A stretch of 64,000 bases of DNA from Escherichia coli (GTDB taxonomy: Bacteria; Pseudomonadota; Gammaproteobacteria; Enterobacterales; Enterobacteriaceae), in NCBI RefSeq assembly GCF_001677475.2, contig NZ_CP015229.1, one strand, 5' to 3'. Positions within the stretch are counted from its first letter, which is position 1. Each line of letters starts with the position of its first letter. The translations under genes and the position numbers were made by a program. A model generated the notes under the pieces. It saw nothing but the letters and a program-made list of their open reading frames with translations, was not told the DNA's origin and did not search any database. This document shows, piece by piece, positions 62,966 through 63,589 of this stretch.

Positions 62966-63589
62966 TTAATGCAATTGATACAATCTGACGTTTTTAAAAC
63001 CGGTAAATCTCCTTAACTGTATAAGTGCCTTGAAAATGTAAAAGCCATCACTATCACAAGCAATTTCAAACTTGTTGAAAACCGATATTTTATAGTGACT
63101 AATGTACTTGACATCCTTTTTTAGCAGGGTGTGCAATATTCTTTTGTTATCTATCTTAAAATATAAGTAATAGATATCCCACTCATACCTTGTCAGAGTC
63201 ACCTGCCTGATTTGCTGGTCTTTATCAGTACTTTTAATCAAAGTAATGAGTTTATTCAATTTTATATATCGGCTAATGAATGTTTGCTCTGAAAGTGAAA
63301 AGAAGATATTTCTGTTTTTCATCTTTCTTAGTGAAACAATCATTAAAAACCTGGCCAAATCTGGCAGTTTTGCAAGTATACTTACGTCATCCACTGCGAC
63401 AAGAAGTACGTTTTTGGTAAAGCGGTTATCAAATCTAAGTGTACTTAGGTCATTATTACATGCATTTTGAGAACAAAAAAAACACTCAATAAAAAAACGA
63501 TAATGGTGACCTAGTTTTGCACTTAATCCCTGAAGGTAATATAGATCATCCGAAATGATAATTACCCTTGTTAGTAAGTTCTTGTTCAT
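62966..63589 (-). CDS. Putative fimbrial operon regulator: degenerate receiver-like N-terminus plus degenerate LuxR/FixJ-type HTH
   Basis: 207-aa AT-rich ORF 43 bp upstream of the pilin gene; RVIIISDD and NVLLVAVDD resemble receiver strands; LTRYEWDIYYLYFKIDNKRILHTLLKKDVKYISHYKISVFNKF loosely fits the LuxR HTH pattern. Confidence 0.45.
   Translation of the reverse strand: MNKNLLTRVIIISDDLYYLQGLSAKLGHHYRFFIECFFCSQNACNNDLSTLRFDNRFTKNVLLVAVDDVSILAKLPDLARFLMIVSLRKMKNRNIFFSLSEQTFISRYIKLNKLITLIKSTDKDQQIRQVTLTRYEWDIYYLYFKIDNKRILHTLLKKDVKYISHYKISVFNKFEIACDSDGFYIFKALIQLRRFTGFKNVRLYQLH

Follow-up and report, generated by a model that had tools for sequence, protein, structure and literature searches.

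A predicted acceptor-less receiver/LuxR-type regulator heads the fimbrial operon of O-island 47 in Escherichia coli

What controls the chaperone-usher fimbriae of O-island 47 (OI-47) in Escherichia coli is a question raised by the small open reading frame (ORF) that precedes the pilin gene. This ORF lies on the minus strand at positions 62966..63589 of the 64,000-nucleotide stretch of E. coli DNA analysed here and called the window (assembly GCF_001677475.2, contig NZ_CP015229.1), at a locus that is OI-47 (z1528-z1556) of enterohaemorrhagic E. coli (EHEC) O157:H7. An earlier, sequence-only reading had taken it to head the fimbrial operon, which agrees with its being co-directional with the pilin gene and 42 nt upstream of the pilin start, and had described its 207-residue product as a degenerate FimZ/LuxR-like protein. 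On the evidence of its modelled fold and of profile alignments, the product joins a degenerate receiver to a helix-turn-helix (HTH) of the LuxR/GerE type, and would be a so far uncharacterised atypical regulator attached to an adhesin operon.

The ORF runs from an ATG to a stop codon over 207 codons, exactly at the coordinates first read off the sequence, and its AT-rich character and richness in Lys, Ile, Phe and Tyr, likewise claimed at that stage, were confirmed by measurement (GC 0.32; L 13.5%, I 9.7%, K 9.2%, F 8.2%, Y 5.8%; basic, with an isoelectric point of 9.7). Together with its upstream region it has a GC content of 0.32-0.33, against 0.45-0.52 in the five downstream fimbrial genes. 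It is a genuine gene and not a chance ORF, because it is conserved at full length, because non-synonymous differences (pN) stand well below synonymous ones (pS) and because orthologues keep its length and synteny. Among 5426 complete E. coli genomes 380 carry it, always full-length and single-copy, at 95-99% nucleotide identity, O157:H7 being one of the carriers (there as WP_001039007.1, labelled 'hypothetical protein'). The pN/pS ratio within E. coli is about 0.17, and in comparison with the 55%-identical Pseudocitrobacter-type orthologue pN is 0.26 and pS 0.80, the latter being saturated; these nearest orthologues (54-56% identity) agree with E. coli in length and synteny. Non-synonymous evolution is nonetheless about four times faster than in the usher and the adhesin genes. 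The codon usage is also unusual: AGA or AGG supplies 11 of the 14 Arg codons and, with 6 ATA and 6 CTA codons besides, the load of rare codons comes to 12.1 per 100 as against 0.5-8 in the fimbrial structural genes (0.5 for the pilin), which hints at translational limitation of the kind reported for Salmonella fimY, the Salmonella fim regulator genes being AT-rich with rare Arg codons. A dedicated rare-codon tRNA nearby, comparable to fimU/argU, was ruled out, the window containing no tRNA gene.

To what fold and family, then, does the protein belong? An exhaustive phmmer search of 1.84 billion representative sequences returned 11 proteins, extended by a profile search to a family of 21, and the alignment of these 21 sequences served as input for AlphaFold2. 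Structure prediction, which the sequence-only reading had put forward as a check, gave a model with a pLDDT (predicted local distance difference test) of 82.8 and a pTM (predicted template-modelling score) of 0.80, in which an alpha/beta domain (residues 7-119) is followed by a four-helix bundle (134-196), so that both expected folds are predicted. The N-terminal part has a CheY-like receiver fold; this receiver-like domain (residues 1-120, positions 63230..63589, minus strand) comprises β1 (7-13), α1 (16-27), β2 (32-38), β3 (59-65), α3 (69-74), β4 (82-87), an extra strand (96-99), β5 (102-106) and α5 (111-119), with no helix predicted at the places of α2 or α4. Foldseek comparison with the PDB gave, at E-values of 1.6e-4 to 1e-3, exclusively full-length NarL/FixJ regulators (VraR, RcsB, EvgA, DesR, FixJ, LiaR), followed by NarL and VpsT (2e-3 to 6e-3); the best TM-score, 0.52, belonged to RcsB, whose full-length superpositions ranged over 0.49-0.52. 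Consistent with this, hhalign aligned the family profile with K-12 FimZ, RcsB, EvgA and NarL over 172 columns spanning both domains (probability 87%, E 4.4e-6). A single-sequence search of the PDB had returned de novo TIM (triosephosphate isomerase) barrels only, at E of about 0.004, which we took to be compositional noise.

The feature that sets this receiver apart is its active site. In three alignments (hhalign, MAFFT E-INS-i and MAFFT L-INS-i) Ala65 is aligned with the phospho-accepting aspartates of FimZ (D56), RcsB (D56) and NarL (D59); position 65 is Ala in 20 of the 21 family members, and the predicted strand β3 ends precisely there, so that no acceptor Asp stands at the C-terminal end of β3. 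The xMPG loop that follows the acceptor site (β3-α3) is deleted in all three alignments, and the conserved Lys after β5 is replaced by an invariant Arg107. No histidine kinase gene occurs within ±12 kb in O157:H7, nor in the island as present in the window. Because the acceptor is Ala, the loop is lost, Lys is changed to Arg and a kinase is missing within 12 kb, we conclude that the protein would derive from a NarL-type regulator and act as an orphan, independently of phosphorylation. Of the two suspicions of the sequence-only reading, the lack of a clear phospho-acceptor is confirmed, and possible independence of phosphorylation is supported, by the change of Asp to Ala and the adjacent deletion. 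The pocket nevertheless appears to have been remodelled, not abandoned, since positions near the lost acceptor are among the most conserved of the family; these pocket positions are S13, D14, D15, D67, D68, S86, R88 and R107. Their register is not entirely fixed, as D14/D15 are the conserved residues yet the alignments place S13/D14 at the acidic pair after β1, and the alignments differ by two positions on the Thr/Ser site after β4, where S86 is conserved. Such a pocket probably fixes the conformation of the domain or binds a partner or ligand.

The C-terminal domain (residues 128-196, positions 63002..63208, minus strand) is assigned to the LuxR/GerE-type HTH by hhalign, by a profile comparison with the RcsB DNA-binding domain (1p4w), by weak GerE matches in relatives and by BLASTP to FimZ. 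Its predicted helices (134-145, 149-156, 160-174 and 179-196) form, in both profile and structure, the four-helix LuxR/GerE fold with the LTxRE...recognition-helix pattern. The family motif LTxxE...K161-x-x-S164-x-Y-K167-x-S-x-x-x-K173 is invariant and in register with the recognition helices of RcsB (including 1p4w), EvgA and FimZ, and the invariance of E136, K161, S164, K167 and K173 within the family, notably that of the recognition-helix residues, points to predicted competence for DNA binding.

The genomic company kept by the family carries the argument from structure to function. Its members, of about 195-223 residues, come from Escherichia, Pseudocitrobacter, Citrobacter, Enterobacter and Pseudenterobacter and are mostly recorded as 'hypothetical', two of them being labelled LuxR family; the distant ones are 24-33% identical, twenty positions remain invariant or nearly so across genera at about 25% overall identity, and the common motifs are SDDxYYLxG, AVDD, SLR, the invariant Arg after β5 and LTxxE...KxxSxYKxSxxxK. 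What comes directly after the family gene is a set of chaperone-usher fimbrial genes in the window and in loci L002, L006, L009, L011, L100 and L101, a YadA-type trimeric autotransporter adhesin in L008, and classical autotransporters in L013 and L099. A gene for a GrvA-like (ToxR-like) membrane transcription factor lies near it in every locus with enough flank, accompanied by a gene for a FidL-like partner in all but L099. In the cassette of the distant members the FidL-like and GrvA-like genes are divergent from an EAL-only gene, after which come the family gene and then the adhesin genes; the EAL-only gene (234-268 residues) is directly upstream of the family gene, with a gap of at most 16 nt or a 4-nt overlap, in L007-L009, L011 and L099-L101. 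Its products keep the catalytic motifs (E-I-L, N, EIVE, DD, KLD, EGVE, QG) in L008, L009 and L100, and have Asp for the first Glu of a degenerate EAL motif in L007 and L099. OI-47 holds the same parts in permuted order, its membrane CSS-EAL protein being 24% identical to the small EAL proteins by BLAST. Between E. coli and Pseudocitrobacter the regulator retains 55% amino-acid identity, GrvA 52% and FidL 49%, against 72-90% for the fimbrial structural proteins and 82% for the short-chain dehydrogenase/reductase (SDR); the regulator thus behaves as a 'fast-evolving cassette' gene, as described for GrvA and FidL.

Some minor features of these loci deserve mention. Directly after the family-regulator fimbrial operon there is a gene for a 67-residue Hha-family protein in Pseudenterobacter (L100, 14930-15133) and in E. 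hormaechei (L101, 14892-15095); Hha being an H-NS co-regulator, its place next to the cassette fits a silencing/anti-silencing control of AT-rich cassettes. The distant member in L012 lies beside a TraI relaxase and an integrase, and one of the 380 E. coli copies is on a record classed as a plasmid, which together suggest occasional mobility of the cassette. The 90%-identity cluster containing the 207-residue protein (P0001) also lists many 186-residue 'fimbrial protein' entries, which are the neighbouring pilin; since these look like a clustering artefact, the figure of '646 members' overstates the number of regulators.

Putting fold, pocket and neighbourhood together, we favour, as the probable explanation, a DNA-binding transcription regulator of NarL/FixJ-type descent that dispenses with aspartyl phosphorylation and switches on the OI-47 operon, its output being set by its own amount and by its cassette partners. 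The conserved gene neighbourhood points to an operon-specific role. The protein would act at the promoter region, rich in AT, from which its own gene is transcribed, binding there and turning on the downstream chaperone-usher operon, activation or anti-silencing being more likely than repression. Its amount would depend on the silencing of its AT-rich promoter, on the long leader and on the rare AGA/AGG Arg codons, and its input would come not from a histidine kinase but from the cassette partners, namely the GrvA/FidL pair as a bile or envelope sensor acting upstream and the cyclic di-GMP (c-di-GMP) phosphodiesterase. A bolder and more tentative proposal, which we hold to be somewhat unlikely, would make the protein the cytoplasmic output of a four-part, horizontally mobile 'adhesin switch', composed of the GrvA/FidL pair, the EAL phosphodiesterase and the pseudo-receiver/LuxR factor and used with three classes of adhesin in various Enterobacteriaceae; OI-47 fimbriae would then be a direct target of the GrvA pathway in EHEC, and a heterodimer with RcsB could explain the RcsB dependence of GrvA.

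Several observations weigh against this explanation. The protein has no match to Pfam Response_reg (PF00072) at E ≤ 10, nor has any of the 21 family members at E ≤ 1, and GerE (PF00196) is undetected in it; GerE is the commonest weak Pfam match among the relatives, found in 4 of 21 and always sub-threshold (best E 0.0031, 17.5 bits against a cutoff of 23.5). With neither model reaching threshold, the homology rests on profile and predicted-structure comparison. In addition, one locus (L007) has no recognisable adhesin after the family gene, being the sole such case (L012 ends too early); the small EAL gene is absent from the E. coli locus, with no remnant upstream; the conserved D67/D68, two positions past Ala65, leave a displaced phospho-acceptor as a minor possibility; and the best-studied analogues in a like position, KpfR and FimW, are repressors. 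The failure of the standard Pfam models does make the label 'degenerate' apt, and it agrees with the early impression that the C-terminus was only loosely LuxR; of the profile searches envisaged at that stage, those with standard Pfam models failed and the profile-profile alignment of the whole family succeeded. Direct annotation with hidden Markov models was accordingly set aside, Pfam having given just a spurious SMMA_C match and NCBIfam none.

How close does the protein then stand to FimZ, after which it was first named? FimZ (b0535 in E. coli K-12, and its Salmonella namesake), which belongs to the NarL family and regulates type 1/Sfm fimbriae, is of nearly the same length (210 against 207 residues) and resembles it in combining a receiver with a LuxR-type HTH, in the KxxSxxK recognition helix, in its linkage to chaperone-usher genes and in aligning end to end with the family profile. 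FimZ, however, keeps D56, the DLPG loop, K106 and ordinary Pfam Response_reg and GerE domains, whereas the 207-residue protein has Ala65, a 5-residue deletion, Arg107 and no Pfam match. BLASTP finds 33% identity to FimZ over 69 C-terminal residues only (E 0.009), and FimZ-type proteins were not retrieved by the phmmer search. The FimZ-like architecture proposed by the sequence-only reading is therefore retained and orthology to FimZ is rejected for lack of full-length similarity; because the phospho-acceptor and Pfam tests failed, we file the protein neither as a response regulator nor as a FimZ orthologue.

The sign of control and the nature of the partner are the points at which other explanations enter. 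An unlikely one likens the protein to FimW of Salmonella or KpfR of Klebsiella: as a negative regulator or anti-activator it would keep the operon off by binding an operator or by sequestering another LuxR-type activator, RcsB or FimZ for example. It draws on K. pneumoniae kpfR, which encodes an HTH regulator, is likewise the first gene of its cluster (the type-1-like kpfABCD), is co-transcribed with it and regulates it as a repressor (PMC7861041), on the rise in type III secretion after deletion of the whole of OI-47 (PMC10877973), and on the missing prediction of α4, a part of the usual α4-β5-α5 dimer surface, which suits a heteromeric or non-canonical interaction. The invariant recognition-helix residues, however, favour direct DNA binding, and for cryptic fimbrial operons rich in AT the need for a dedicated activator is the commoner case; nor is there sequence kinship to a characterised repressor, the 11 phmmer relatives all being uncharacterised. 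KpfR, which is Fur-controlled, was not retrieved as a homologue by phmmer. A heterodimeric function has precedents in RcsA, BglJ, GadE, DctR and MatA/EcpR, LuxR-type partners of RcsB that are orphans without a working phospho-site. EcpR is the product of the first gene of the E. coli common pilus (ECP) operon, and MatA/EcpR reportedly partners RcsB. That our protein is one more such auxiliary, whose heterodimer with RcsB would render OI-47 fimbriae RcsB-dependent and possibly account for the same dependence of GrvA, is in our view rather improbable. RcsB does provide its best full-length structural match and an identical recognition-helix pattern (KxISxxK), and GrvA action requires RcsB (PMC10877973), but the likeness is one that NarL-family proteins share in general, and the protein has no sequence family in common with any of the five partners. 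EcpR, which heads its operon, and YqeH, which adjoins the GrvA/FidL paralogues YqeI/YqeJ, are on that account positional analogues; their N-terminal domain (EcpR_N, PF27348, followed by GerE) is unrelated, and YqeH passes the GerE threshold, which the 207-residue protein does not. YqeH had been considered as a homologue in view of the K-12 yqeH-yqeI-yqeJ arrangement and was rejected, since hhalign covered 44 HTH columns only (E 0.15) and YqeH falls in the EcpR_N family; precomputed Pfam assignments are '-' for all family members as against PF27348 for the relatives of YqeH.

The frequent EAL gene calls to mind VpsT and CsgD, which also join a degenerate receiver to a LuxR HTH, control surface structures and have a connection with c-di-GMP. 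In VpsT a W[F/L/M][T/S]R motif for the nucleotide is said to sit after α5, at the base of an extra helix. A VpsT-type effector, in which a nucleotide bound to the degenerate receiver controls DNA binding and the adjacent EAL protein sets the local signal, would be in keeping with the tight EAL linkage in seven loci, with catalytic motifs kept in several, with the CSS-EAL gene beside dgcT in OI-47, with VpsT among the Foldseek matches and with Arg88 and Arg107 conserved in an acidic pocket. We think it distinctly unlikely all the same, since neither the VpsT motif nor its extra helix α6 is evident, the similar [F/V]x[S/N]R at residues 104-107 aligning to the canonical β5 Lys site and not to that of VpsT, and since neither the E. 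coli nor the Pseudocitrobacter loci have the small EAL gene, whose motif is degenerate in L007 and L099. A lower probability still attaches to continued phosphorylation, in which the acceptor would have shifted to Asp67 and acetyl phosphate or a kinase encoded elsewhere would supply the phosphate: position 67 is Asp in 18 members, Glu in 2 and His in 1, and D14, D15 and S86 are conserved at or next to positions aligned with canonical active-site residues, yet three alignments and the predicted end of β3 put Ala65 at the acceptor site, the Glu or His carried by three members rules out an acceptor common to the whole family, the loop shaping the active site is lost and Lys has become Arg, and the neighbourhood has no kinase. 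It is very improbable, finally, that the gene is in decay or already a functionless relic, playing no part today; it does evolve fast at non-synonymous sites and escapes all curated hidden Markov models, but it is intact in all 380 carrier genomes, shows pN well below pS and keeps its (near-)invariant positions across genera, and GrvA and FidL, which are functional, diverge equally fast.

Two further comparisons concern position. In Salmonella the EAL gene STM0551 is directly upstream of fimY, a gene for an HTH fimbrial regulator (PMC6741139), a striking positional parallel to the pairs of EAL and family-regulator genes; the FimY motif DISLWIEKG suggests that Asp is kept where the family has Ala. 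Neither FimY nor FimW was retrieved by phmmer or by the profile search, so that any relationship would lie beyond sequence detection; a scan of genome contigs with FimZ yielded mostly generic NarL-family regulators, E. albertii providing the only close locus and Salmonella none. The pairs GrvA/FidL, MarT/FidL and VtrA/VtrC share with the regulator the same islands and a fast rate of change (identity of 52% for GrvA and 49% for FidL, beside 55% for the regulator), and adhesins adjoin both kinds of gene, as MisL does in Salmonella, but they are membrane ToxR-like sensors and not LuxR proteins. Kinch et al. 2022 (PMC9214523) present the GrvA/FidL pair as a 'co-component' sensor resembling VtrA/VtrC, and their text mentions no LuxR, EAL or fimbrial companion.

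Atypical response regulators that work without phosphorylation are already well known, as are regulators of fimbriae of the LuxR type, and a specialist will not be greatly surprised to meet one here. The interest of the gene lies in its being the obvious, so far unannotated candidate regulator of the fimbriae of OI-47, a conserved island of EHEC O157:H7, O55:H7 and O145:H28 in which GrvA controls the locus of enterocyte effacement and acid resistance; in the testable regulatory cassette formed by an acceptor-less LuxR factor with a remodelled pocket, a ToxR-like sensor pair, an EAL gene and three classes of adhesin; and in the reasoned annotation that could be given to some 650 'hypothetical protein' database sequences, a count inflated by pilin entries.

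The surroundings of the gene in the window may now be described. The extent of OI-47 and its inclusion of GrvA are known from earlier work (PMC8565820, PMC10877973); our literature search, including by locus tag, found no paper mentioning the 207-residue ORF, and the text of the fimbrial catalogue of Wurpel et al. mentions neither regulators nor the ycdT/pga position. The order along the locus is dgcT, CSS-EAL, FidL/YqeJ-like, GrvA, SDR and fimbrial operon, followed by the regulator gene; past the window end, orthologous E. coli loci continue with a two-partner secretion system and acyl-carrier genes. The first OI-47 gene, at 52327..53937 on the plus strand, encodes a CSS-motif EAL phosphodiesterase-type protein (Pfam; O157 annotation), which is the sole EAL protein encoded near the regulator in OI-47. 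It is z1528, presumably VmpA. The diguanylate cyclase gene dgcT/ycdT adjoins it (together 50748-53937, plus strand), so that a pair of genes for c-di-GMP synthesis and degradation stands at the OI-47 border, beside pgaABCD. All the genes that follow are on the minus strand. The FidL/YqeJ-like periplasmic co-component of GrvA (ECs1273; 54039..54530) was identified by BLASTP to YqeJ and from the literature (PMC9214523), its orthologue matching PF27292 YqeJ_C, and GrvA itself (z1531/ECs1274; 54535..55347), a ToxR-like membrane transcription factor and YqeI paralogue, by Pfam Trans_reg_C and the literature, with 32% identity to K-12 YqeI; both are established virulence and acid-resistance regulators of EHEC. 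In E. coli 2012C-4221 (L001, 732-1553) an internal stop has led to the annotation of the grvA orthologue as a pseudogene, and the adjoining SDR gene is frameshifted, the 207-residue ORF being intact.

The operon itself, assigned throughout by Pfam, consists, in the direction of transcription, of the genes for the major pilin (62363..62923; Fimbrial, PF00419), periplasmic chaperone 1 (61576..62298; PapD_N/PapD_C), the outer-membrane usher (59001..61523), a 444-residue fimbrial protein that is likely the tip adhesin (57651..58985) and periplasmic chaperone 2 (56965..57654). Chaperone 2 is more diverged between E. coli and Pseudocitrobacter, at 72% identity against 86-90% for pilin, usher and adhesin, and its GC content is lower (0.45). 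The 42-nt gap between regulator and pilin (62924..62965) contains the pilin Shine-Dalgarno sequence AAGGA within a conserved AAGGAT block, and a terminator scan found no terminator-like hairpin in it; a junction holding just a Shine-Dalgarno sequence suggests read-through into the pilin gene, for which the co-transcription of kpfR may serve as a model.

Upstream of the regulator gene a candidate σ70 promoter (TTGTTA, 18 nt, TATATT; 63808..63837, minus strand) was proposed from a consensus scan and a three-way alignment. The number of consensus matches in the scan was not above chance; both hexamers lie within blocks invariant among E. coli and two diverged orthologous loci, and the position would imply a 5' leader of about 215 nt. 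These blocks, at 63786-63837 and 63694-63700 on the minus strand, are invariant between E. coli and the two orthologous loci (about 55% protein identity) in the midst of unalignable flanks; one covers the candidate -35 and -10 hexamers and continues with CCATCG...TAGGACAT, the other is ATGTCGC, and such short invariant blocks are possible operator sites. Repeat and GATC scans gave no evidence for a phase-variation device, be it invertible DNA or a pair of GATC sites as in Pap, the upstream repeats being short and imperfect and GATC being absent within about 500 nt of the start codon. The idea that an EAL gene had once preceded the E. coli regulator and been lost was likewise dropped, since tblastn with the EAL, GrvA and FidL proteins found no match in the upstream intergenic regions of 1.3-1.4 kb. 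Outside the window, at L001 10868-10918, two 16-nt arms, GGATGTCTGAAATGAT / ATCATTTCAGACATCC, form a perfect inverted repeat around a 19-nt spacer, in the long AT-rich intergenic stretch that separates the regulator from a divergent TpsA gene.

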